Assembly: GCA_037127815.1 (NCBI GenBank)
Contig: JBAXXP010000004.1
Location: forward strand, 4,647-68,646
DNA length: 64,000 bases
Source of the DNA: a bacterium
GTDB lineage: Bacteria; Patescibacteriota; Minisyncoccia; Phycocordibacterales; CAIZLB01
Direction of reading: 5' to 3'
Shown: one piece after another, positions 4,222 to 59,170 of the stretch
How positions within the stretch are numbered: position 1 is the stretch's first letter
How the letters are laid out: every line of letters begins with the position of its first letter
Translations under genes and position numbers: made by a program
The notes under the pieces: model-generated
Databases searched by the model: none
The model's input: only the letters and a program-made list of their open reading frames with translations
Told to the model about the DNA's origin: nothing

Positions 4222-4601
4222 GATAATAGTTATACATCACTATTCATAGTCCTTTCCTGCCTCCCATGTTAAAATATATAGTAAATATACATTGAAAGCA
4301 GGAGCACTTACTTTGGATGTTAAGGCAATAAATGCTAGTGGTTCTTCCATTGATAAAAAAATAAACACAGTAACAGAAAAGGATCAAACAAGTAAAAATA
4401 CAGAAAAAGTACCTCTTTTTCAAAGAGTGTGGAATTGGTTCATGAAATAACTTATAATCAAATTATAGACCTCTAGACAATACAGGTATATAAAGAAGAA
4501 TCATTGAGATTATGATTAGGACACAAATAATACCCCATATAATCTTTACTGTTTTTTGGTGTTTTGGATTAAGAAACATATAGTCTATAATATACCAGTA
4601 A

Positions 4602-5885: not shown

Positions 5886-5957
5886 GCCGCCATAGTTCAA
5901 TGGATAGAACAGTCCCGTCCTAAGGGATTGATGTGGGTTCGATTCCTGCTGGTGGCA
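5886..5957 (+). tRNA. tRNA-Arg (anticodon CCT)
   Basis: Cloverleaf built by hand. Acceptor GCCGCCA/TGGTGGC. D-arm TAGTTCAATGGATAGAAC resembles E. coli tRNA-Arg(CCU). Anticodon loop GTCCTAA. T-loop TTCGATT with a T-stem carrying two wobble pairs. No encoded CCA. Confidence 0.65.
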
Positions 5958-6094
5958 CAGAATTAACGAAGTGAATTTTGGGACGACAAGCAAGCCGATA
6001 CTTCGGCTTGCGGGCAGGAATCGAAAAGGTTCTCCCGTATTTTCGAGAAGCGAGCTTTGAGAAAATGGGAAACCTGTACTGGTCTCGTAGAGAC

Positions 6095-6117
6095 CGATTC
6101 CTGCTGGTGGCACAGAA
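6095..6117 (+). repeat. 23-bp perfect direct repeat of the tRNA-Arg 3' end (copy of 5940-5962)
   Basis: CGATTCCTGCTGGTGGCACAGAA occurs at 5940-5962 (the tRNA T-loop/acceptor 3' half plus 5 nt) and again at 6095-6117. The copies are 155 bp apart. Confidence 0.8.
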
Positions 6118-6260
6118 CTCAATAAAGGTATATCTGAGGATACGCCAATTCTCTGCTAAGAATTGGCTCTGCTTACTGCCGTTCGCAAGTTCCTCAGATA
6201 CACCTTTGTTTCATTGGAGATTATACAAATGCATGGTTTTGGGTTAGTATTATCAACAAC

Positions 6261-7343
6261 ATGTTTAAATGTAAACCACAAAAAGAATACGCACTGATTG
6301 ATGCTGGAAATAGCTTCAAATTAGAAAGATATGGAGAATATCTAATTGCAAGACCAGATCCTCAAGCACTGTGGCCTAAGGCTGTTTATAGCGCCCTGTC
6401 TGCCGTTGTAAAGATAAATAATGATAACATCAACCTTTGGCCTAACATTGATGCTGTGTTTGCTAAGGGAGGGTTTGGAGGCTCAAGTGGGCGTGGTTCT
6501 TCGTCTTCATCTTCTGCTCAAACGGATGATGATAATGACATTGGTAATTGGATTAAGACAAGAGCTATCCCTGAAAAATGGCCTATTAAGTTTGAGATGG
6601 GAGATGGCCTTCCTGCATTAAACATATATGCAAGATTGACTCCATTTAAGCATACTGGAATTTTTCCAGAACAGTTTACAAACTGGAAGTGGTCAATGGA
6701 ATTGATTAATAAAGCAATGGAAAATGACACTGCAGGTGCTGAGGCAAAATTCACAAAAGAAAACCCACCAAAAATATTAAATCTTTTTGGATATTCTGGT
6801 GCTGCAACTGTGGCTTGTCTTTTGGCAGGAGCTCATGTTACTCACGTTGATTCATCAAAGGGGGCTGTAACTTGGGCAAATGAGAATGCAGAACTAGCCG
6901 GAGTATTGGACAAACCAGTTAGATGGATTTTGGAAGATGCTGTTTCATTTATTAAGAAAGAAATTAGAAGAGGAAATAAGTATGATGGAATAATCCTAGA
7001 TCCTCCAGCTTTTGGGCGAGGTGCACAGGGTGAGGTTTGGAAAATCGAAAGAGATTTTTTACCATTCCTAGAATTGATTTTTGAATTACTTTCAGATAAA
7101 GCGTTGTTTGTTATTCTTAACGGTTATGCTGCTGGATATTCATCTATTGCGTATTCACAGAACTTTAGAAATCTTATTGCAAAAAGAGGTGGGGAAGTTG
7201 AACATGGTGAATTGTGTATTGAGCAAGATTTGAACGATTTTAAGAAGATGATGGATGGTGCTACTGTGGGCATGGATACATCGTCAAAACTTGACCCAAT
7301 AGTACTTCCATGTGGAATTGTAGCTCGCTGGAAAAGTCTCTAG
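6261..7343 (+). CDS. Class I SAM-dependent methyltransferase, RlmI/RlmK-like rRNA methyltransferase family, with low-complexity Gly/Ser insertion
   Basis: Methyltransferase fold motifs LNLFGYSGAATVA and GIILDPPAFGRG. The N-terminal region is PUA/RlmI-like. An inserted GGFGGSSGRGSSSSSSAQTDDDND tract is present. Confidence 0.6.
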   Translation: MFKCKPQKEYALIDAGNSFKLERYGEYLIARPDPQALWPKAVYSALSAVVKINNDNINLWPNIDAVFAKGGFGGSSGRGSSSSSSAQTDDDNDIGNWIKTRAIPEKWPIKFEMGDGLPALNIYARLTPFKHTGIFPEQFTNWKWSMELINKAMENDTAGAEAKFTKENPPKILNLFGYSGAATVACLLAGAHVTHVDSSKGAVTWANENAELAGVLDKPVRWILEDAVSFIKKEIRRGNKYDGIILDPPAFGRGAQGEVWKIERDFLPFLELIFELLSDKALFVILNGYAAGYSSIAYSQNFRNLIAKRGGEVEHGELCIEQDLNDFKKMMDGATVGMDTSSKLDPIVLPCGIVARWKSL

Positions 7344-11426: not shown

Positions 11427-13816
11427 TTTTCGGTCATTATCAATTCTCGAGTTTTAAGCTCTTTTGGAAGAAGTGACCAAAGTTCTTGAGTTACATGAGG
11501 CATAAATGGATGTAGTGTCTTTACAATCATCGCAAGTGTTTCAAGTAAGAATTTTGCGCGAGATTTTTTCATCGCAACAGCTTCTATATTTGATTCATCG
11601 TTATTTGCAAAAATTTCTTTACTACTTTCTAAAATGACATCAGCAAACTCCTTCCATGTATAATTATACAGGTCTTCTGCAACAATGTGAATCTTTAAAT
11701 TGTCCATATTTGTTGATATCGATTTAAAAACTTCATTTCTCTTTTCAATTAACGCTAAATCAGCTTCAGTGAAAGATATATTTGTCTTATCTTCGTCCAC
11801 ACCGTTACTTGCAACATCATGCATTCCTTCGGTTGAAGTTAAAATAAATCTAGTAACATTCCAAATTTTGTTTGCAAAGTGTTTGTATCCCTTAATTTTA
11901 TTTTCATCGATTTTACTATCAGTTCCTGGTGCTGTTCCAAAAACAAGTGACATTCTACCGGCATCCATTCCAAATTTTTGAGCAATTTCTATTGGATCGA
12001 TTCCATTACCTAATGTCTTTGAAAACTTTCTTCCTTTCATATCACGAACCATTCCAGTGAATAGAACTTTACTGAAGGGTATTGTTCCAAGGACATAACC
12101 TGTCATTAAAATCATACGTGCTACCCAGAAGAAAATAATGTCATGTCCAGTAACAAGAAGGTTTGTTGGATGATATATTGCAAAATCACTTTGTGGATCA
12201 TTTGCTTTTGCAGGCCATCCCATTGTTGAGAAACTCCAAAGACCAGAAGAGAACCATGTGTCTAGCGTGTCTTCATCTTGAATCCATTGATCTGCGTCAT
12301 CGCCAGTTGGAGCTTCTAGTCCGCAATAAATATCAGATTTAGATGCCTCAGAATCTGCCTCCTGATTTATATTAGAACCTTTCTTATACCAAACGGGAAT
12401 TCTGTGTCCGTACCAGATTTGGCGAGAAATACACCAATCGTTCAAATTATCTATCCAATTAAAATATGTTTTAAGGAAGTGCTCAGGCATCATCTCAATT
12501 TGGCCACCCAGAACTGCCTTTTGCATAATTTCCTTTAATGTAGTTTCTGATCCAGATTCTATTCCATCAATATCAGAATGGGGGAGTTTGAATTTTTTAT
12601 TAACAGCAACAAACCATTGAAGCTTAGGAAGTGGCTCAATAATTCCACCAGTACGCTCGGCAGTAGATACTCTTTGATCAATTTCAGTTTCATCAATAAG
12701 TAAATCATTTTCTTTAAGCCAAGCAACAACAAGCTCTCGCGCTTCAGCAACTTTTTTACCAACAATCTCAGGAGAACCAATCATCATGCGAGCTTTTTCA
12801 TCAATAACCTGAACCATAGGTAAACCATGACGCATTGCAATTTGATAGTCAGTCATGCTGTGTGCTGGGGTAATACCAACAGCACCTGTTCCAAAATCCA
12901 TTTCAGCCTCATGGTCTGCAACAATTTTTATTTTAATTGGAGCACCACAAAAATCCATTGAATATTCTTTTCCAACAAACTCCTTATAACGAGGGTCCTC
13001 CGGGTTTACTGCAACAGCAACATCTCCCAGTTTTGTTTCAGGACGAGTTGTTGAAATAGCGATAGGGAAGTCTTTACTATATTTGAAAGTATAAAACTTT
13101 GCCTTTCTGTCTTCATAAACTATTTCATCATCTGAAATTGTTGTTTGACCTTTTGGGTCCCAGTTAATAACTCTATTTTTTTTGAAAATTAGACCATCGT
13201 CATACATTTTTTTGAAAACAGTTCTAACTGCAAAGTTTCTTTCCTCATCTAATGTGAAGGCTTCTCTTGACCAATCAACAGAAGCCCCAATTGTCTGAAG
13301 TTGAGAAACAATTGTATCGTGACTTTGCTTTGCAAAAGTATCAACTCGCTTAAGTAACTCCTCTCTACCTAAATCATGTCTATTCAAACCTTCCGCCTTT
13401 TGAATATTTTTCTCAACCATTGATTGTGTTGCAATTGAGGCATGGTCCGTTCCAGGAATCCAAAGTACTCTATTTCCTTTCATTCGTTTGTATCTAATTA
13501 CGATGTCTTGCGTAGTGAACCCAAGAGCGTGTCCCATATGAAGTGTTCCAGTTACGTTTGGAGGAGGGAGAATAATACTATAAACAGGAGCATCAGCTTT
13601 AGTGATTCCTTCTTTAATACAAACATCTGGATTGTAAAATCCACTTTCACGTTCTTCTTTTTGAACTCGAGGTTCCACCTCAGTTGGATCATAAGGCTTT
13701 AGAAGTTGAGCTGGGATATTTGGGGCATAATGAGTTTTTTGCTCTGATGTGTCCGTTTTCTTATTATTTTCAGTATTTGCATCTGTGTTTGATGCGATGT
13801 TTGTATCTTGGCTCAT
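11411..13816 (-). CDS. valS: Valyl-tRNA synthetase
   Basis: PPNVTGTLHMGHAL HIGH motif. GTDHASIATQ is a ValRS signature. KFSKTLGN is the KMSKS motif. At 801 aa the C-terminal coiled-coil domain seems to be missing. Confidence 0.85.
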   Translation of the reverse strand: MSQDTNIASNTDANTENNKKTDTSEQKTHYAPNIPAQLLKPYDPTEVEPRVQKEERESGFYNPDVCIKEGITKADAPVYSIILPPPNVTGTLHMGHALGFTTQDIVIRYKRMKGNRVLWIPGTDHASIATQSMVEKNIQKAEGLNRHDLGREELLKRVDTFAKQSHDTIVSQLQTIGASVDWSREAFTLDEERNFAVRTVFKKMYDDGLIFKKNRVINWDPKGQTTISDDEIVYEDRKAKFYTFKYSKDFPIAISTTRPETKLGDVAVAVNPEDPRYKEFVGKEYSMDFCGAPIKIKIVADHEAEMDFGTGAVGITPAHSMTDYQIAMRHGLPMVQVIDEKARMMIGSPEIVGKKVAEARELVVAWLKENDLLIDETEIDQRVSTAERTGGIIEPLPKLQWFVAVNKKFKLPHSDIDGIESGSETTLKEIMQKAVLGGQIEMMPEHFLKTYFNWIDNLNDWCISRQIWYGHRIPVWYKKGSNINQEADSEASKSDIYCGLEAPTGDDADQWIQDEDTLDTWFSSGLWSFSTMGWPAKANDPQSDFAIYHPTNLLVTGHDIIFFWVARMILMTGYVLGTIPFSKVLFTGMVRDMKGRKFSKTLGNGIDPIEIAQKFGMDAGRMSLVFGTAPGTDSKIDENKIKGYKHFANKIWNVTRFILTSTEGMHDVASNGVDEDKTNISFTEADLALIEKRNEVFKSISTNMDNLKIHIVAEDLYNYTWKEFADVILESSKEIFANNDESNIEAVAMKKSRAKFLLETLAMIVKTLHPFMPHVTQELWSLLPKELKTRELIMTEKWPTT

Positions 13817-14012
13817 ATTTTTATTATTTATATATTTATATTATCACAAAGTAGGGGATTATAAAGGTATAAAGTTGGTATTTAATAGGCTTAAAATCTA
13901 CCCAAAAATAATTGACGTACTATGATTAATATTGTATTGTCTTTGGTGGAAGTGGAACCCGATGTTCCATTATGACCAGATCATTTTAGAACTTAATTGA
14001 TAGAAGTATTTT

Positions 14013-20031: not shown

Positions 20032-20313
20032 ATAGCTAAAAAATAAAACAAAAAACTCATGCAAATTATTGCATGAGTTTTTTGTTTGCTGCACTTCAAT
20101 AAAATTAGCTCGTTAAAATTGTTGCGCCGCCTGCACTAAGGTTTTTGTTCGCTACGCTCCAACAAACCAAGTGCATCGGCATCACATTTTTATAGTCGTC
20201 GCACTCCTTAAAAATTGTGAACAGCCGGTACTAGAATATTTTATTCGCAAAGCTCAAAAATATAAAGTACCGCTGCATCACGAATTTATGCTCACTTCGT
20301 TCGGTAAATTCTG

Positions 20314-32308: not shown

Positions 32309-32417
32309 GTACTGCTCCCGCTTGAGTTTCTGAATGGCACGGCGGGGGTTACAGTCCTTGTGATTGCTAATAATCTGACTGGTATATTATGCATATTTTG
32401 GCGGAAAATACAACACC

Positions 32418-32537
32418 CCAGCCCCAAATTATCATCCTTGAGAACACGCCAGTTTTCTGCTGAAACCCTTAATTTCCTTCGCAATCACCTGCTCACTGCC
32501 ACTCGCAAGTTTCTCAAGGATGATAATTTGGGGCTGG
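32418..32537. repeat. 27-bp perfect inverted repeat (CCAGCCCCAAATTATCATCCTTGAGAA / TTCTCAAGGATGATAATTTGGGGCTGG) flanking a 66-bp loop, 110-230 bp upstream of rpsA start
   Basis: The arms are at 32418-32444 and 32511-32537, read directly. GC is elevated. The spurious ORF 32360..32548 spans this element. Confidence 0.8.
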
Positions 32538-32655
32538 AGGGCGAATAAGTCTCTCAAAATAAGCCTAATTATTGCATATGTAATTTTGATTTAAGTGGAT
32601 AAGTCTTTGAAAACTTTGGTTTTTCTTTATATTTGAGTAATAAAATCTTATTCAT

Positions 32656-33048
32656 ATGATAAAAGATTTTGATAAATGGAACAGAAGAAAAAAGGCGATT
32701 GAGGATTCTGATTGCGAGGTATTATTTAGAACAAAGGAAATTTGGTGGTGTTATGTTGGCTTGAACATTAAAATTGAGTCGTGTGGAAAGGGTGATGATT
32801 ATAAACGCCCTGTACTTGTGTTGAGAAAATTATCTGCAAAAGGTTTCATTGGGATACCTCTTTCAACGCAAGCTAAGAAGGGCTCATGGTTCGTAGATTT
32901 AGAAGTGAATGGTAAAAAAGGATGTGCCCTTATTTATCAAATTAAAATGTTTAGCTCCAGTCGTATGTATTGGAGAATCTCAGTTCTTGATGATTCAAGT
33001 TTTGAAAGTGTAAAAGAAAAGCTCAGGTTGTTACTTGAGCTTTTCTAA
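32656..33048 (+). CDS. MazF/PemK-family toxin-like protein (divergent)
   Basis: EIWWCYVG...DYKRPVLVL...IGIPLSTQAK...ALIYQIKMFSSSR aligns with the MazF DIVWVDFD...HRPAVVL...CVPCTTQSK...ALADQVKSIAWRAR blocks. Confidence 0.5.
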   Translation: MIKDFDKWNRRKKAIEDSDCEVLFRTKEIWWCYVGLNIKIESCGKGDDYKRPVLVLRKLSAKGFIGIPLSTQAKKGSWFVDLEVNGKKGCALIYQIKMFSSSRMYWRISVLDDSSFESVKEKLRLLLELF

Positions 33049-38523: not shown

Positions 38524-39870
38524 ATGAACAAATCATCAAGCCCATTTCAAATTATATTTATAGGAGTATTTATATTTGCAGCCATTGTTGGAGTTATAAT
38601 CTTTTCTGCGTTTACTAACTCTTCAAATAATACTGCTGTAAAAGCAACTATCTGGGGAACAGAGGCTGAGGCTGATTTCAAAAATCTCCTTGCAATAATC
38701 GATCCTCAAAAAAAAGCGATGGATGTAACTTATGTACAAAAAAGTGCTGATACATTTGAAGCAGAATTTGTTAATGCATTAGCTGAAGGAAAAGGACCAG
38801 ACATTGTTTTAATTGATGATTCAAAAATTTTCTCTTGGAAGGGCAAGCTACAGCCTATTCCGTTTAAAACATTGCCTCAAAGAACATTCTCAGACACTTT
38901 TATAGATGCTGCAAACATCTTTGTAATGGCAGATGGAATTTATGCACTACCTTTAAACGTTGATCCTTTGGTTATGTATTGGAATAAGACCATGTTTAGC
39001 GATGGTGGAATTGTGTTGCCGCCAAAAACATGGCAACAGCTCACAGCTTCAATTCCAAGTTTAACTCAAAGAACTGATAGATCAGAAATTATAAAATCTG
39101 CTGTCGCCCTAGGGGAGTCTTCCAATATTGACCACTCCAAAGAAATTTTTATTAATTTAATGCTTCAAGGCGGAAACAATTTAGTAGAGTTTGACCCTGC
39201 CGTAAGTAGATATATGTCTACCGTAGATGTACTTTCTCCAAGTGGCACAAATATTTTTGAAGCAGCCACAAATTTCTATACTTCATTTTCAAATCCTAAT
39301 AATGAGAGATATTCATGGAATAAATCTCTGGTAAGATCAAGAGATTATTTCATTTCTGGAAATCTAGGAATGTACTTTGGTTTTGCAAGTGAATATCCTG
39401 TTCTACAAAGAAAGAATCCTAATCTTAACTTTGATGTTGCTCTTATGCCACAAGATGAGTTAAGGTCTGCAAATGTACAATCTGCATCGTACGCTAAAAT
39501 AAATGCTCTAGCTCTTGTCAAACAATCAAGAAATCAAGCTGCTGCAATAAGTGTAATGACACAATTGGTTGCCTCAGTTGCTCAGGCAGAGTTTGTAAAA
39601 ATAACAAACTTGCCTTCTGCCAGAAGAGATCTGCTTCAAGTGCCAAATGGTGAGAACGTGTACATAGATATTTTTGGTAAAGCGGCTATTCAAGCTAAGA
39701 CGTGGTATGACCCAAGCTCCACTGCGACCGATTCAATTTTTAGAGAATTAATTGACACAATTACAACGGGTAAAATAACAAGTGGAGAGGCTAGAAATAT
39801 TTTGAATCAGAAGCTTCAGGCTCTTGTCTCAGGGGCAAGCCCAAGTAGTGTTAATTCTACAGGGAATTAA
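38524..39870 (+). CDS. Extracellular solute-binding protein-like (ABC-type, family 1-like), membrane-anchored
   Basis: N-terminal TM/signal anchor followed by a periplasmic-binding-protein-like domain of about 400 aa. No permease or ATPase gene is adjacent. Confidence 0.5.
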   Translation: MNKSSSPFQIIFIGVFIFAAIVGVIIFSAFTNSSNNTAVKATIWGTEAEADFKNLLAIIDPQKKAMDVTYVQKSADTFEAEFVNALAEGKGPDIVLIDDSKIFSWKGKLQPIPFKTLPQRTFSDTFIDAANIFVMADGIYALPLNVDPLVMYWNKTMFSDGGIVLPPKTWQQLTASIPSLTQRTDRSEIIKSAVALGESSNIDHSKEIFINLMLQGGNNLVEFDPAVSRYMSTVDVLSPSGTNIFEAATNFYTSFSNPNNERYSWNKSLVRSRDYFISGNLGMYFGFASEYPVLQRKNPNLNFDVALMPQDELRSANVQSASYAKINALALVKQSRNQAAAISVMTQLVASVAQAEFVKITNLPSARRDLLQVPNGENVYIDIFGKAAIQAKTWYDPSSTATDSIFRELIDTITTGKITSGEARNILNQKLQALVSGASPSSVNSTGN

Positions 39871-39916: not shown

Positions 39917-40378
39917 TTGATGAAAATAATAAAAAATAAATTATTGAAAAAGGAAAACTTTGCGAAAAGCAAAAATACAGTTTGGTCTACCTTGTTGACA
40001 CTTGCGGTTGTATTATTTGGTTTTCTAAATGTTAGCAAAGTTTTTGCGCAAAGTACGGGTTCAAACCCTGTTTCAAATCTTTTACTTATCTGTACAACCC
40101 GATCAACTCCATGTGGATGGCAAGATTTAATTAATTTAATAAATGCCATGGTTCAATATGCTATTGAGTTAATAGGTATAGTCTTTGTTATAGTTCTATT
40201 GTATGCGGGTATGATGTATATAACTTCTGGTGGAGATGCATCAAAGGTTAAGAAAGCTAAGGATATGTTGTATAAAGTTGTTTGGGGAATGGTATATACC
40301 CTTTGTGCTTGGATTATTGTATACTTTATACTAACAAGCTTAGGCGTTGACCAAACTTTTTACGAAAAAATTATATAA
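39917..40378 (+). CDS. T4SS pilin-like (TrbC/VirB2-family-like) protein, paralog 1 of 6
   Basis: Cleavable signal peptide (...VSKVFAQS), then two hydrophobic helices separated by SGGDASKVKKAKDMLYKVVWGMVY, which is pilin-like two-TM topology. Confidence 0.6.
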   Translation: MMKIIKNKLLKKENFAKSKNTVWSTLLTLAVVLFGFLNVSKVFAQSTGSNPVSNLLLICTTRSTPCGWQDLINLINAMVQYAIELIGIVFVIVLLYAGMMYITSGGDASKVKKAKDMLYKVVWGMVYTLCAWIIVYFILTSLGVDQTFYEKII

Positions 40379-40387
40379 CAACATAAA

Positions 40388-40777
40388 ATGAAAAACACTA
40401 GATTAATCTTATTCATGGTTACAGGAGCTTTAATGCTTCTTGTTATCTTTGGTGTAGACTTTATAACCGCCCACTCAATTGCTTTTGCTCAAATAAATGA
40501 TGGTAAAATTCATAACCCCCTTGGTTCAACAACAACTCTCAGTCAGGTGCTTGGCATTGTTATATCTTCCGTTCAGGTTATTGCTGGAGTTTTGTCTGTT
40601 GTTTTCATTATAATCGCAGGTCTTAAGTTTGTATTGGCAAATGGTGATCCTGCAAAGATAAAGACAGCTAAATCAATGCTGCTTTATGTTGTAATAGGTA
40701 TTGCGATAATATTCGGTGCTCAGGCTATTGCCATAGTAGTTCAGACAACAATTAAGCAGGTTGGTAGCGGGCAATAA
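40388..40777 (+). CDS. T4SS pilin-like protein, paralog 2 of 6
   Basis: Signal peptide ending AFAQI; two TM helices with NGDPAKIKTAKSMLLYVVIGIAIIFG between them. Confidence 0.6.
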   Translation: MKNTRLILFMVTGALMLLVIFGVDFITAHSIAFAQINDGKIHNPLGSTTTLSQVLGIVISSVQVIAGVLSVVFIIIAGLKFVLANGDPAKIKTAKSMLLYVVIGIAIIFGAQAIAIVVQTTIKQVGSGQ

Positions 40778-40829
40778 AGTGTTTTACATCATCAGTCAAA
40801 TAAGACTATTATCAATATAATTTAAAAAA

Positions 40830-41144
40830 ATGTTAGAAAGTAAAAATTCACTCTTAGCTCAGGTTGGTAATGTAACAGACCTGAAAAGCCTTGTAGTTGG
40901 CATGATAGATATATTAGGAAGTTACGTTGTACCATTCATCGTTGCATTAGCACTTGTAGTTTTTTTGTGGGGAATATTTAGAACCATGACAGCTGCTGGC
41001 GATGGTAAGAAAAGACAGGAGGGTCTGGCATATATTACATACGGGATAATAGGCTTGGCTGTTATGATTTCAGTTTGGAGTTTGGTATATCTTCTAACCA
41101 CTACATTCTTTTCAGGCGGATTGATGATACCTCAGCTAAATTAA
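40830..41144 (+). CDS. T4SS pilin-like protein, paralog 3 of 6
   Basis: FLWGIFRTMTAAGDGKKRQEGLAYITYGIIGLAVMISVWSLVYLLTTTF is the shared core. Confidence 0.6.
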   Translation: MLESKNSLLAQVGNVTDLKSLVVGMIDILGSYVVPFIVALALVVFLWGIFRTMTAAGDGKKRQEGLAYITYGIIGLAVMISVWSLVYLLTTTFFSGGLMIPQLN

Positions 41145-41186
41145 TCTGATACATGGTAATATGATTATTATTAATTATAAAATACA

Positions 41187-41486
41187 ATGACAGGAGAAAT
41201 AGGAGCAAAGGGAGTAATAGTATTTCTAATTTCATTTATAAATGGAGTTGTAGGTTTTATAATAGGCCTAACTCTAGTTGTCTTTATATGGGGACTTTTC
41301 AAATTGATTTTTGCGAGCAGTGATTCAAAAGAGAGAGAGACGGCTAAAGGGTATATAGTTTGGGGAATTATCTCATTAGCTATCATGGTCTCTGTATGGG
41401 GGCTAGTTAATTTATTAACCTCATCTTTTGGTTTTGGTAGTGTTACTCCAATGGTGCCGGGATTCCCAAATACTTCTATATTTTAG
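41187..41486 (+). CDS. T4SS pilin-like protein, paralog 4 of 6
   Basis: FIWGLFKLIFASSDSKERETAKGYIVWGIISLAIMVSVWGLVNLLTSSF. Confidence 0.6.
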   Translation: MTGEIGAKGVIVFLISFINGVVGFIIGLTLVVFIWGLFKLIFASSDSKERETAKGYIVWGIISLAIMVSVWGLVNLLTSSFGFGSVTPMVPGFPNTSIF

Positions 41487-41605
41487 AATCCACAGTTTTT
41501 CTTTAATTGTGTATATAACTTTTAAATAATAGGGTATAATAGTATTAAGTGACGTTTATGTTGCTTAGTAAAAGATAACTTAGTATTTAATAAAATAATT
41601 TAATT

Positions 41606-41929
41606 ATGACAAATTCAACAACTGGAATTAGTGGACTTTACGGCCTTTTGGCCCAAGCTACTGATTTCACAAATAGACTTATTCCCTTTATCATTGGTCT
41701 TACTGTACTATTTTTCCTATGGGGTATTTTTAGATTGGTATTCTCAGCTAAGGATTCCGAAGCTAGAACAGAAGCTAGAGGCTATATAATTTGGGGGATT
41801 ATAGCTCTTGCTGTTATGGTTTCTGTATGGGGACTAGTTAACCTTTTAACAAGCACATTCAGTCTAAATCAAAATATTCCATCAGGTCCTGGTCTACCAC
41901 AAGCAGGAGGTTCAATTCAGCTTAAATAG
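41606..41929 (+). CDS. T4SS pilin-like protein, paralog 5 of 6
   Basis: FLWGIFRLVFSAKDSEARTEARGYIIWGIIALAVMVSVWGLVNLLTSTF. Confidence 0.6.
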   Translation: MTNSTTGISGLYGLLAQATDFTNRLIPFIIGLTVLFFLWGIFRLVFSAKDSEARTEARGYIIWGIIALAVMVSVWGLVNLLTSTFSLNQNIPSGPGLPQAGGSIQLK

Positions 41930-41945
41930 TAATTTATAACTAATT

Positions 41946-42239
41946 ATGTCAGGAACTGTACCACCAGCATTGATGACCCTTATAACCTCAATTAGTAGGT
42001 ATATTCTTAATCCACTTATTGTACTTGCTTTCGCGGTAGCTATGGTTGTTTTCACATGGGGAGTTTTTGATTATATAAAAGGAGCTTCAGATCCAAAAGC
42101 TAGAGAAACAGGCAGGAGTCACATTTTATGGGGTATTATTGGTATCGCTATTATGTTTTCTGTTTTTGGAATAATGAGAGTTATTTCAAACACAGTTGGA
42201 GGTCCGACAAGTCAGATTCAGAATATACAGAAGCTCTAG
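41946..42239 (+). CDS. T4SS pilin-like protein, paralog 6 of 6
   Basis: FTWGVFDYIKGASDPKARETGRSHILWGIIGIAIMFSVFGIMRVISNTV. Confidence 0.6.
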   Translation: MSGTVPPALMTLITSISRYILNPLIVLAFAVAMVVFTWGVFDYIKGASDPKARETGRSHILWGIIGIAIMFSVFGIMRVISNTVGGPTSQIQNIQKL

Positions 42240-42372
42240 AGACTCAAATAAAACAGCACGTACAAATTGTATATGCTGTTTTGTTTTTGATGGGCGAGGA
42301 AATATAGTCTTGAAAAGTGCTCTACTTTTAACAAAATAAAAATACACAGACTTGCGTCTGTGTATTTTTTCT

Positions 42373-42391
42373 GTGGGCGAGGAAGGACTCG
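42373..42391 (-). repeat. 19-nt near-identical copy (18/19) of the tRNA-Leu 3' end, preceded by its own hairpin terminator
   Basis: GTGGGCGAGGAAGGACTCG here versus GTGGGCGAGGAGGGACTCG in the tRNA. A shorter copy TGGGCGAGGA lies at 42291-42300, also directly after a hairpin plus T-run. Confidence 0.65.
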
Positions 42392-42554
42392 GTGCATACT
42401 GCCCCAGTACACCTTTGCAATTTTATCGAATCTTTCAGGTTCTCAAAATATAGCAAAGCTTTTCTCGTCCCTCACGTATGTGCCTCAAAGCACACCCTCT
42501 CTCCCTTCATATTAAACAAAACAACATACACGGGTGTGTATGTTGTTTTGTTTA

Positions 42555-42639
42555 TGGTGGGCGAGGAGGGACTCGAACCCTCAATCCTTACGGAACTAGT
42601 TCCTAAGACTAGCGCGTATACCAATTCCGCCACTCGCCC
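42555..42639 (-). tRNA. tRNA-Leu (anticodon TAG), CCA encoded
   Basis: Reverse complement reads GGGCGAGTGGCGGAATTGGTATACGCG-CTAGT-CTTAGGA-ACTAG plus a long variable arm, then GAGGGTTCGAGTCCCTC-CTCGCCCACCA. Confidence 0.85.
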
Positions 42640-42735
42640 ATATTTATGATTCTTCTGAATTTAAGAATTCAATATTTATATAATACCAGAAGATGTTTTA
42701 AGATCCTATAGTATTATAGAGTTATTGAACTCTTG

Positions 42736-42808
42736 TCCGCCCGGTAGGATTCGAACCTACGACCGTTCACTTAAGAGGCGACTGCTCTACCAACTGAGCT
42801 ACGGGCGG
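42736..42808 (-). tRNA. tRNA-Lys (anticodon CTT)
   Basis: Reverse complement reads CCGCCCGTAGCTCAGTTGGTAGAGCA-GTCGC-CTCTTAA-GTGAA-CGGTC-GTAGGTTCGAATCCTAC-CGGGCGGA. The D-arm matches tRNA-Lys. There is one G.A mismatch at the top of the anticodon stem. Confidence 0.7.
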
Positions 42809-42907
42809 ATATGTTCACAATAGTACCAAGAAAGTGCACAAAATACAACCTCCCTTATCCTAATCATTGTTATCTCCTTGTGCTACCACTCCTTATTACC
42901 CTTACTA

Positions 42908-44239
42908 TTATCGCCTTAGCCCTTTAGCAGAAGCCTCGCCGGCAACAAAACCTGTTGTCCAGCATAACTGAAGGCTAAAGCCTCCAGAAGGCCTGTCAAC
43001 GTTCAGTATATCGCCAACAAGGTATAGGTTGGGGAATAGGCGAGAGGACATGGTTTTAAAATCGACCTCATCAAGAGAAACTCCTCCGCTTGTAATTATT
43101 GCCTTGTCCACTCCCAGCAGTTTTTCAACATGAAGTGGTACATCCTTTAGTAGATTTATAAGTCTGATTCTCTCTTCTCTGGTAATGCTATTGCAGGCCT
43201 TTTCTGGATCAATTAATGATAGATCTACAATGATGGGTGCGACAGCAGAAGGTACGATATTTACAAGAGCATTTCTAAATTTCTTTTTATCATGTTCTTT
43301 AAATAGCTCTTGAAGTTTAGTATTTAAAACTCCATAGTCTTCTGATGGTAATAGGTCTAAGGAGACAGTAACTTCTCCATACTTCAGAAGATCTCCAATA
43401 TCTCTACTCATATTTAGTATTGTTGGTCCACTTACGCCCACGTGTGTGAAAAGAATTTTTCCCTTCTTAAAGAAATGTTTTTTACCATTTTGAAAAATGG
43501 AAATCTTTATATCTGTCATGCTAATACCAGCTAATTTTGGAACCCACTCGTCTTTTATTGCTAGTGGAACAAGTGAGGGAATAGGGTCAATTACAGTATG
43601 TCCTATACTTTTTAGCCACACAAAGCCATCGCCGGTTGAGCCGGTAAGAGGAGCGGAAGCACCACCGGTTGCAATGACTACACTTTTTCCATATATCACT
43701 TTTTTGCCCTTTAGTGTTATTCCAACTATTTTTCTAGTTGCAACTTCATCATTCTCTACAGCAATACCCATAACTGGGGAGTTGGATAAAACTTCAACTT
43801 TATTTTCTCTCATGTAATTCACTAGTACGTCCAAGACGGATTGTGATTTATTCGAAACAGGGAAGGTTCGTAATTCATTTTCTACCTTTGTCTCCATTCC
43901 GTATTTGTGAAAGAAATCCAGCGAGTCTTTTACACTATGTTGCGAGAAAGCAGAGAATAAAAATTTACCATCGTCTTTAAATCTTTCTAGAAACTTTCTA
44001 ATATCAAATTCCGAGTTTGTAACATTGCATCTTCCTCCTCCTGTAATTAAAAGTTTTCTACCTAGTGTTTCATTTTTTTCAATAAGAAGAACCTTAGCGC
44101 CACATTCTGCTGCTCTTCCTGCCGATATCATGCCAGCAGGTCCACCACCTACTACTATTACGTCCCATGGGGTATTAGTTTCCATTGAGGTTATATTAGC
44201 ATTTTTTGCTCGTTGACCCAAATAGATAGTAAAATACAT
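42908..44239 (-). CDS. HI0933/BaiN-family NAD(P)/FAD-dependent oxidoreductase
   Basis: WDVIVVGGGPAGMISAGRAAECGAKVLLIEKNETLGRKLLITGGGRCNVTN matches the N-terminus of this family. The true start is probably the internal Met near 44185. Confidence 0.8.
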   Translation of the reverse strand: MYFTIYLGQRAKNANITSMETNTPWDVIVVGGGPAGMISAGRAAECGAKVLLIEKNETLGRKLLITGGGRCNVTNSEFDIRKFLERFKDDGKFLFSAFSQHSVKDSLDFFHKYGMETKVENELRTFPVSNKSQSVLDVLVNYMRENKVEVLSNSPVMGIAVENDEVATRKIVGITLKGKKVIYGKSVVIATGGASAPLTGSTGDGFVWLKSIGHTVIDPIPSLVPLAIKDEWVPKLAGISMTDIKISIFQNGKKHFFKKGKILFTHVGVSGPTILNMSRDIGDLLKYGEVTVSLDLLPSEDYGVLNTKLQELFKEHDKKKFRNALVNIVPSAVAPIIVDLSLIDPEKACNSITREERIRLINLLKDVPLHVEKLLGVDKAIITSGGVSLDEVDFKTMSSRLFPNLYLVGDILNVDRPSGGFSLQLCWTTGFVAGEASAKGLRR

Positions 44240-47122: not shown

Positions 47123-47485
47123 ATGTATATACCTGAACAAGGAAATATTATCAAACTAAACTTCAATCCAATTAAAGGACACGAGCAAGGTGGATACAGA
47201 CCGGCTGTAGTAATAACCAAAAAGATATATAATTCTAAATCTAATACTATTTTGATTTGTCCAATCACTAGTAAAATTAAGAATTATCCGTATGAAGTGA
47301 CCATCGAGATGGAGGGGTTCACTGATAACGATAATCTGGGATTGGTGAGCGACATTTCCGGAGTAGTATTAACAGACCATATTAAGTCTGCAGACTATAA
47401 AGCAAGAAAAGTTAATTTTTCAGGTAGATTGAAAGAGATTGTTGTGTGGAATATTTTAGCTAAAATTAAAACTTTGATAGATTAA
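47123..47485 (+). CDS. MazF/PemK-family endoribonuclease toxin
   Basis: GNIIKLNFNPIKGHEQGGYRPAVVITKK...ILICPITSK matches the MazF GDIVWVDFDPTKGSEQAGHRPAVVLS...CVPCTTQ blocks. Confidence 0.75.
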   Translation: MYIPEQGNIIKLNFNPIKGHEQGGYRPAVVITKKIYNSKSNTILICPITSKIKNYPYEVTIEMEGFTDNDNLGLVSDISGVVLTDHIKSADYKARKVNFSGRLKEIVVWNILAKIKTLID

Positions 47486-58813: not shown

Positions 58814-58882
58814 AATGAGGGTTCATTTAAACATTATTTTGGTATTTTGGCAACTAAAGTAATATAACAACACAATAGAGAG

Positions 58883-58986
58883 GCTCCCATATGCCTTGCC
58901 TCCCGAGAGCACAAGGATTTCTTGCTAGAAATCCTCTCTGCTCGCTGCAGCTCGCAAGGCTCTCAGGAGGTAAGGTATATGGGCGC
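58883..58986. repeat. Imperfect 28-bp inverted repeat (24/28) enclosing a 9-bp perfect inner hairpin, upstream of typA
   Basis: Arms GCTCCCATATGCCTTGCCTCCCGAGAGC (58883-58910) and GCTCTCAGGAGGTAAGGTATATGGGCGC (58959-58986). Inner hairpin AGGATTTCT-TGC-TAGAAATCCT at 58914-58935. Confidence 0.7.
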
Positions 58987-59170
58987 TAGTCATTTGTAGG
59001 TGGTATCAGGTTAGTTTCCTATATCCTCAATATTGGGGAATGGGCCTATATTCAAAGGTAAAACAGCGTATCTATTGACAAATATTATATATTATGCTAT
59101 TGTATAAGCAGTTAAATAAGTTCTTTGAATGATATTGAGGTAATGTTTGAGTTTGGAAGAAAGATCGTAA

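Follow-up and report, generated by a model that had tools for sequence, protein, structure and literature searches.

Displaced tRNA-Leu(TAG) 3' ends beside a conserved pilin locus of Patescibacteriota, and a probable RtT-like tRNA-trailer module behind them

The 3' end of the rtT RNA of Escherichia coli is reported to be set by tRNA-processing enzymes, and to our knowledge the 178-bp repeats of the E. coli tyrT operon have neither an explanation nor relatives outside the enterobacteria. Here we compare these repeats with a locus in a 64,000-nucleotide (nt) stretch of a Patescibacteriota genome (the window: GCA_037127815.1, contig JBAXXP010000004.1, positions 4,647 to 68,646), where the 3' end of a tRNA-Leu(TAG) gene recurs twice between that gene and an array of pilin genes. 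In E. coli MG1655, tyrT-tyrV contains four RtT units (RF00391), the first separating tyrT from tyrV and the other three downstream of tyrV. Every unit finishes with AATCCTTCCCCCACCACCA, the final 19 nt of tRNA-Tyr, and carries GGGGAAGGAT, the inverted first ten nt of AATCCTTCCCCCACCACCA; according to both the Rfam consensus structure and the fold, GGGGAAGGAT and the terminal repeat form the closing stem. One repeated unit of the tyrT operon is rttR (PMC3318445), whose mode of action is described as unknown (bioRxiv 10.1101/2024.07.17.603846).

Integrative elements are the second system to be compared. Williams is said to have placed, in 2002, the crossover of tRNA-targeting integrases in the T loop. 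The Dehalococcoides ssrA genomic islands are reported to carry an integrase and to produce serial repeats at the 3' end of the tmRNA gene (PMC3146451).

The preliminary description of the window had reported three tandem units made of a hairpin and a tRNA-Leu 3' end, and had read them as the footprints of an integrative element. The units are real. With up to three mismatches allowed, the 19-mer GTGGGCGAGGAGGGACTCG has two matches in the window, one in the tRNA (42557-42575) and one with a single mismatch (42373-42391), where 100 shuffles gave none; the 10-mer TGGGCGAGGA, searched on both strands of the 64 kb, has exactly three sites (42291, 42374 and 42558; 0.02 expected), all on the same strand. 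Such counts are far above chance, so that the partial copies are not chance matches, an outcome that had been named in advance as refuting the integrative reading. We consider it likely that the units consist of one working tRNA-Leu 3' end and two displaced copies of it made by a non-coding, structured, RtT-like tRNA-trailer module. The features of the locus are as follows; DR and hp denote the direct repeats and hairpins, P1 to P5 the helices of the module, and R1 a covariance model that we built from the module core.

42246..42286, no strand assigned: hp1, an imperfect hairpin with A/T runs between the last pilin stop codon (42239) and DR3 (fold)
42291..42300, minus strand: DR3, third copy of the tRNA-Leu 3' end, 10 nt, TCCTCGCCCA in tRNA sense (exact 10-mer match, 10/10)
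42301..42337, minus strand: spacer of 37 nt between hp2 and DR3 with nothing recognisable (sequence; no R1 match)
42338..42369, no strand assigned: hp2, a 14-bp stem with a T-run after it, adjoining DR2 on the 3' side in tRNA sense (fold)
42373..42391, minus strand: DR2, second copy of the tRNA-Leu 3' end, 18/19 identical (mismatch search, fold)
42373..42505, minus strand: RtT-like tRNA-trailer module, Leu copy (R1 84.3 bits, P1-P5 fold)
42514..42553, no strand assigned: hp3, a terminator-like hairpin directly 3' of tRNA-Leu, flanked by an A-run and a T-run (sequence, fold)
42557-42575, minus strand: DR1, first copy, the final 19 nt of tRNA-Leu ahead of CA
42555..42639, minus strand: tRNA-Leu(TAG), intact, CCA encoded (ARAGORN; Rfam tRNA model, 61.1 bits)
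42735-42808, minus strand: tRNA-Lys(CTT) (ARAGORN and Rfam)

Numbered as in a tRNA, the 19 identical nt begin at C56 in the T loop, take in the 3' strands of the T stem and of the acceptor and then the discriminator, and stop at the first C of CCA. The 18/19 identity of DR2 is as first reported, and its sole mismatch, C to U, retains a G.U pair in P3; DR2 forms the 3' strand of the module helices P3 and P1. DR3, likewise found exactly where ten retained nt had been described, spans the end of the T stem, the acceptor 3' strand and the discriminator. The copies are 184 nt (first to second) and 83 nt (second to third) apart, and the intervening DNA is non-coding, with neither an integrase nor an excisionase between them. 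The 37-nt spacer next to DR3 is possibly the eroded remains of an older unit.

Each repeat copy abuts a strong hairpin, which on the plus strand comes before the copy and has A and T runs at its sides, the three folding at -16 to -25 kcal/mol on either strand (z -4.7 to -8.7 against shuffles): -16 to -18 kcal/mol for hp1 (z -4.7 to -5.7), -17 to -18.5 for hp2 (z -8.7) and -24.7 on both strands for hp3 (z about -8). The hairpin first described next to the tRNA is present and strong, but its loop has four nt (GGGT on the plus strand) rather than GGG, and its stem is longer, at 18-19 bp. In a consensus terminator scan of 41900-42950, the only site called terminator-like was hp2, on the minus strand; hp1 and hp3 fail because their T-run forms part of the stem. 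Probably hp1 also terminates the convergent pilin gene.

Anatomy and distribution of the tRNA-trailer module

The DNA between the first two copies belongs to an unannotated family of RtT-like tRNA-trailer modules with two members in the window. R1 finds exactly these two, at 6012-6107 (89.9 bits, E 5e-23) and 42379-42476 (84.3 bits, E 2e-21), and further members directly behind tRNA-Leu(TAG) in L106, L120 and L206 (contigs other than the window are designated by L numbers); R1 scores are 40-90 bits. Apart from R1, we asked of the 560 tRNAs in all fetched loci whether the 3' 14-mer of each recurs exactly, and found eight independent cases in which the second copy lies 129-243 nt downstream on the same strand: tRNA-Arg in the window, tRNA-Leu in L220, L101, L117 and L164, tRNA-Lys and tRNA-Cys in L125, and tRNA-Gln in L018, a metagenome-assembled genome of Patescibacteria. 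One repeat has a longer range (L136, 1,564 nt downstream of the tRNA); among the 560 tRNAs, no second copy was found upstream or on the opposite strand. Five of the eight cases have a common core made of GAAAAG, a long hairpin, GTAYACTGG, a short hairpin with a GTA loop, CCGA(G/T)T and the tRNA end. Contigs L101, L106, L117, L120, L125, L164 and L206 came from a metagenome scan with the anticodon arm of tRNA-Leu(TAG), which returned mostly unrelated tRNAs and none identical to that of the window among the matches listed.

The module measures about 110-135 nt, or 155-185 nt with hairpin and repeat. It follows immediately on a tRNA gene of the same strand and closes with a copy of the final 19-23 nt of that tRNA, counted from C56. 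Read in tRNA sense, the tRNA itself (DR1) comes first, in most cases with a hairpin after it; then come a strand that complements the acceptor 3' strand (and at times also the trailer or CCA), P2, the reverse complement of tRNA positions 56-65, P4, P5, DR2, and often another hairpin. The internal reverse-complement strand and the terminal tRNA-end copy pair as the closing stem P3, usually lengthened by the acceptor-like P1, and this stem encloses the long hairpin P4 and the short hairpin P5. In the Leu copy of the window the parts are GGGAGAG (42499-42505, acceptor-5'-like), P2, GAGGGAC (the reverse complement of the tRNA T-stem 3' strand plus two T-loop nt), P4, P5 and DR2.

Concerning the arms, three copies (Arg in the window, Lys in L125 and Leu in L106) match the reverse complement of tRNA positions 56-65 perfectly (10/10), and most others come within one or two edits of it. 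The 5' arm is an inverted tRNA 3' end and not a copy of the tRNA 5' half, because the Arg arm reads GCAGG where the T-stem 5' strand of the tRNA itself reads GTGGG. The tRNA of L106 and that of L120 are each followed by a perfectly palindromic hairpin, whose arms measure about 28 nt and contain the acceptor 3' strand. As to the inner parts, P2 (GCAAGCC...GGCTTGC) is common to the Arg copy of the window and the Leu copies of L106 and L206, and the Arg copy of the window has the same P5, GGTCTCGTAGAGACC, as the Leu copy of L220. Modules behind different tRNAs thus have homologous inner parts, whereas their arms follow the tRNA in question.

The copy behind tRNA-Arg is the best preserved of the window:

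5886..5958, plus strand: tRNA-Arg(CCT) (ARAGORN; Rfam tRNA model, 58.3 bits)
5963..6117, plus strand: RtT-like trailer module, Arg copy (R1, fold, inverted-repeat analysis)

Its direct repeat of 23 nt occupies 5940-5962, that is the 3' part of the tRNA and four trailer nt, and 6095-6117, where it forms the terminal repeat CGATTCCTGCTGGTGGCACAGAA. P2 is made of GCAAGCCGA and UCGGCUUGC, GCAGGAATCG is the perfect reverse complement of tRNA positions 56-65, and P5 (GGTCTC-GTA-GAGACC) follows P4; the whole folds at -61.3 kcal/mol (z -5.95). Since this repeat carries the genomic trailer CAGAA and not CCA, the duplication was made at the DNA level, and an origin from a cDNA of the mature tRNA is ruled out on the same grounds. 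In L232, which belongs to the same genome as L216, the tRNA at the orthologous site is joined directly to the sequence that follows the second repeat in the window, and R1 has no match there, the module being absent. The gap between the FKBP and methyltransferase genes is 155 and 350 nt in two further relatives as against 460 nt in the window.

The structure is conserved beyond single sequences. In an alignment of nine sequences, 84% of cells are paired as opposed to 64% in shuffles, both partners change in 22 of the 30 base pairs, and covariation scores 0.528 (at most 0.164 in slid controls), figures that lean towards structure because the alignment was fitted to the R1 model. Single-sequence folds give the same P1-P5 architecture (z -5.5 to -6.4; -42.5 kcal/mol for the Leu module). 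No Rfam family matches either module at E<=1, nor, with short stretches, at E<=10, and in the literature we found no described tRNA-like or T-loop element of the candidate phyla radiation (CPR).

The likeness to the E. coli repeats is one of architecture. Both kinds of unit lie directly 3' of a tRNA gene on its own strand, in tandem and also between tRNA genes, and both end in the 3' end of the upstream tRNA with identity from the T loop onwards (the last 19 nt in E. coli), the unit period being 178 nt in E. coli and the modules here 155-185 nt. In both, an inverted copy of the T-stem 3' strand and acceptor pairs with the repeat and closes a multi-branch structure, and ahead of the repeat stand a short hairpin whose loop has 3 nt (AGCGC-GCA-GCGCU in E. 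coli, GGUCUC-GUA-GAGACC here) and, after it, GAGU. The modules differ from RtT in standing behind tRNA-Leu, -Arg, -Lys, -Cys and probably -Gln, each time with matching arms, in usually having the additional acceptor-like helix P1 and hairpin P2, in lacking a small open reading frame (ORF) of the tpr type, and in belonging to Paceibacteria-type (CPR) genomes rather than to Enterobacteriaceae. We class them as an architectural variant of the RtT kind and leave them outside RF00391.

A separate observation concerns the region downstream of tRNA-Glu (about 20110-20312, minus strand), where the hairpin loops GAGCTTTGCGAA and GGAGCGTAGCGAAC resemble the apical motif UGAGCGAAGCGAAG of P4, and where the trailer start AGAATTTACCGAACGAAGTGAG resembles that of tRNA-Arg; no tRNA-end repeat is present there.

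The pilin block and its variable spacer in related species

Relatives were found through orthologues of the solute-binding protein (SBP) encoded at 38524-39870, and their contigs were then fetched; these orthologues are 67-79% identical to the SBP of the window (67-78% in the syntenic loci described next, 76% in L220). In L215/L216, L219 and L220-222 the common gene order is Lactamase_B_3, a hypothetical protein, GyrA, a short variable stretch, a methyltransferase, SBP and six T4SS_pilin genes, closed on the opposite strand by tRNA-Leu(TAG) and then tRNA-Lys(CTT). L217 has the same order up to the end of the contig, which falls inside tRNA-Leu and so leaves tRNA-Lys out of view. tRNA-Leu(TAG) is 100% identical in the window, L215, L217, L219 and L220, and the window locus is present unchanged in several lake metagenome assemblies. 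The pilin genes themselves (39917-42239, plus strand) are six tandem small paralogues of T4SS_pilin (PF18895) that follow the SBP gene downstream of gyrA; this arrangement is kept gene for gene in L215/L216, L217, L219 and L220-222, and L225 has four pilin-type genes before its contig ends.

Because four related species, one of them (L219) without any repeat, keep the block and the tRNA pair in synteny, the pilin block is ancestral and was not delivered by an element. A comparison of the locus among relatives had been set beforehand as the test capable of overturning delivery of the pilin/SBP block, and it did so, the block being conserved in place.

What varies is the stretch from the last pilin gene to tRNA-Leu, which ranges from 65 to 540 nt among the syntenic relatives:

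L219, 65 nt: one hairpin, no repeat
L215, 245 nt: 5' half of the module (3'-truncated copy)
L220, about 300 nt: full module
window, 316 nt: full module and third repeat copy
L217, 540 nt: an ORF of 110 amino acids (aa; 13511-13843, minus strand) with no Pfam match

L220 has the layout of the window, namely the tRNA, a hairpin, about 125 nt, a perfect 19-mer with CCA, and a hairpin, and window 42395-42516 is 77% identical to its counterpart there; for the Leu module the match, likewise 77% identical, extends over about 165 nt (L220 4985-5147). The DNA between the first two copies is therefore a conserved unit and not random filler, since L220 shares it and L215 keeps its 5' half. Empty sites are found in L232 (Arg) and in L219 and L217 (Leu), and since direct repeats bracket the unit, such a site means that it was either never gained or cleanly lost. 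The module family is thus tied to tRNA 3' ends and comes and goes between related species.

Three further observations concern this spacer and its surroundings. Small ORFs take the place of modules in the tRNA-downstream spacers of two relatives, the one of 110 aa in L217 and one of 173 aa in L232 (2318-2839, plus strand), the latter with no precomputed Pfam hit. In L225 and in contigs of ERZ1426847 and ERZ1426558 the assembly stops no more than about 50 nt past the last pilin gene, where the variable spacer leads up to tRNA-Leu, which suggests strain heterogeneity or repeats at that point. Synteny itself breaks just past tRNA-Lys (window 42808-42908 rightwards; compare L215 14200-17300, L219 13764-16856 and L220 5445-8385), where relatives have tRNA-Leu(TAA), tRNA-Cys, rbfA and infB and the window has an HI0933-like flavoprotein gene (42908-44239); among 80 loci with orthologues of this gene in GTDB genomes, none has an adjoining downstream tRNA.

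Gain and loss of the units and competing explanations

Stacks of progressively truncated units, each ending in a T-arm/acceptor fragment, occur in L106, L120 and L164 as they do in the window. Units might be gained and lost by recombination between the short tRNA-end direct repeats, be it through unequal crossing-over, slippage or a recombinase acting in trans, and repeated rounds combined with erosion would stack the copies as found here, first at 184 nt and then at 83 nt with ten nt of the tRNA end left. The tRNA-Cys and tRNA-Leu genes of L125 have a module between them and no strong terminator, so that this module sits inside a tRNA operon. The module would be co-transcribed with the tRNA or read through from it, and its tRNA-like end would let tRNA-processing enzymes set its 3' end, by analogy with E. 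coli rtT RNA. The module may act as an RNA or may be a self-propagating DNA repeat.

The preliminary description had instead proposed serial attL/attR footprints of tyrosine-integrase elements at tRNA-Leu(TAG), one of which would have delivered or targeted the pilin/SBP block before the element bodies and the integrase were lost. Part of this stands: the duplications are true, the bracketed DNA is present or absent among relatives, the pilin-to-tRNA-Leu spacer takes the five lengths listed above, and the boundary lies in the T loop, where tRNA-targeting integrases cross over and where the 3'-end direct repeats that they leave start. The integrase-bearing Dehalococcoides islands likewise have 3'-end repeats of a tRNA-like gene that bracket an insert and can stack serially. 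Here, however, no integrase, excisionase or transposase was found in the window (Pfam lists for genes at about 1-17 kb and 33-54 kb, ORFs of at least 140 aa elsewhere), the lists and ORF scans returning housekeeping families only, and no distal att copy exists within the 64 kb (19-mer at up to three mismatches, exact 10-mer). The insert is 83-184 nt of non-coding DNA, and no coding element separates the copies in the repeat instances examined, a set outside which L136 falls with its 1,564 nt. Within the insert the target recurs in inverted form, and several hairpins make up a covarying structure; an att arm needs neither such a structure nor tRNA-matched inverted arms. As regards the pilin block, the synteny largely refutes the proposal, and as a whole we regard it as very improbable. 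A phage attP was considered separately and rejected, the 19-mer matching in IMG/VR only phage-encoded tRNA-Leu genes. That the copies are instead decayed tandem duplicates of tRNA-Leu, 5'-truncated pseudogenes with no specific module, is favoured by how common tandem tRNA duplication is and by extra tRNA-derived pieces in some members, L101 having kept the variable arm together with the 3' strand of the anticodon stem and the 5' strand of the T stem. Identity nevertheless ends sharply at C56 without fading, the second copy is always downstream of the intact tRNA and never upstream, and the 5' arms correspond to the tRNA 3' end in reverse complement (with trailer or CCA in L106 and L120), not to copies of its 5' half. 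The DNA beside the copy is moreover homologous to that behind tRNA-Arg, -Lys and -Cys, and a chance likeness of P2, P4 and P5 is contradicted by the R1 scores of 40-90 bits, all of which makes such pseudogenes extremely improbable.

The main rival is a non-autonomous mobile DNA element, akin to miniature inverted-repeat transposable elements (MITEs) or palindrome-associated transposable elements (PATEs) or a miniature integrative element, which would have no RNA role, insert at the T-loop TTCGA and be mobilised in trans by an enzyme whose gene lies elsewhere in the genome. It would account for the patchy presence among close relatives and the clean empty sites, for the homology of P2, P4 and P5 at different tRNAs and in different genomes, for a boundary that is always at C56, i.e. 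T^CGA, for the stacked truncated copies and the perfect palindromes with tRNA-end arms noted above, and for stems in which G.U is about as frequent as A.C. In being short, non-coding, hairpin-rich, multi-copy, patchy and close to terminators, the module also resembles repetitive extragenic palindromes and bacterial interspersed mosaic elements (REP/BIME), MITEs and the IS200/IS605-derived PATEs. The ends of such elements are nevertheless fixed, so that they cannot have tRNA-specific arms, nor do they duplicate 19-23 nt of a tRNA end, and the varying length of this direct repeat (19 to 23 nt) is unlike a fixed target-site duplication; no transposase or recombinase was found nearby, and the module core has no match in IMG/VR, phage or plasmid collections by the searches run. 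We therefore hold this element to be a possible but rather unlikely origin. L220 does encode an IS200-type Y1_Tnp (6347-6793, plus strand) between tRNA-Lys and tRNA-Leu(TAA), with its own flanking hairpins; a link to IS200/IS605 was tried and rejected, these end hairpins being unrelated and the gene having no homologue in the window.

The RtT-like module remains the explanation that we favour, and several points weigh against it. Its link to RtT is one of architecture, with no profile match in either direction: RF00391 has none on the modules at E<=10, and R1 gives only 4.7-5.8 bits on E. coli RtT (E about 1). In the paired columns G.U cells number 23 and A.C cells 18, and because G.U is no commoner than A.C the stems may be selected as DNA or on both strands, and not as RNA; expression and processing of a module RNA are what we infer. 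Nothing that we found explains how modules with homologous P2, P4 and P5 gain arms that exactly match each tRNA. In the 83-nt unit there is nothing recognisable and no R1 match, and we infer that the same process would have left it as an earlier layer, since eroded. The terminator hairpins are all similar and A/T-rich and so give no order of events. An attempt to order the insertions by hairpin type failed in this way: hp1 is 34/45 identical to the flank of hp3, and the tRNA-Leu terminators of related species are 28-36/45 identical to one another (19-26 in an unrelated control).

More speculatively, RtT-type units might form a widespread class that colonises tRNA 3' ends from Enterobacteria to the CPR, spreads between different tRNA genes of one genome and re-matches its arms to each, by a mechanism acting at T^CGA, the inverted copy being guide-like for the T-loop/acceptor segment; we think it doubtful that this extended picture is correct. 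Stacked tRNA-end repeats are routinely taken as integration scars and used to draw the borders of genomic islands, which here would mislabel a conserved pilin locus. An architecture equivalent to RtT now stands behind several tRNAs in streamlined CPR genomes, with empty and filled sites and matched arms, and this family provides a comparative handle on the origin of RtT-type units and on whether they act as RNAs.

Other repeats and genes of the window

A different structured repeat, a long imperfect hairpin, has at least three copies in the window, at about 6120-6215, 32415-32560 and 58865-59000, all on the plus strand; the first of these has no Rfam match at E<=1. Its core reads ACGCCA(A/G)TT(T/C)TCTGCT...CTGCT(C/T)(A/G)(C/T)TGC..TCGCAAG, and it also occurs in L215 (about 13720-13835), L219 (about 4460-4600), L232 (about 1985-2095 and 6390-6520) and L225. 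The precomputed Pfam lists further include two genes for PemK-type toxins in the window, at 32656-33048 and 47123-47485, both on the plus strand.

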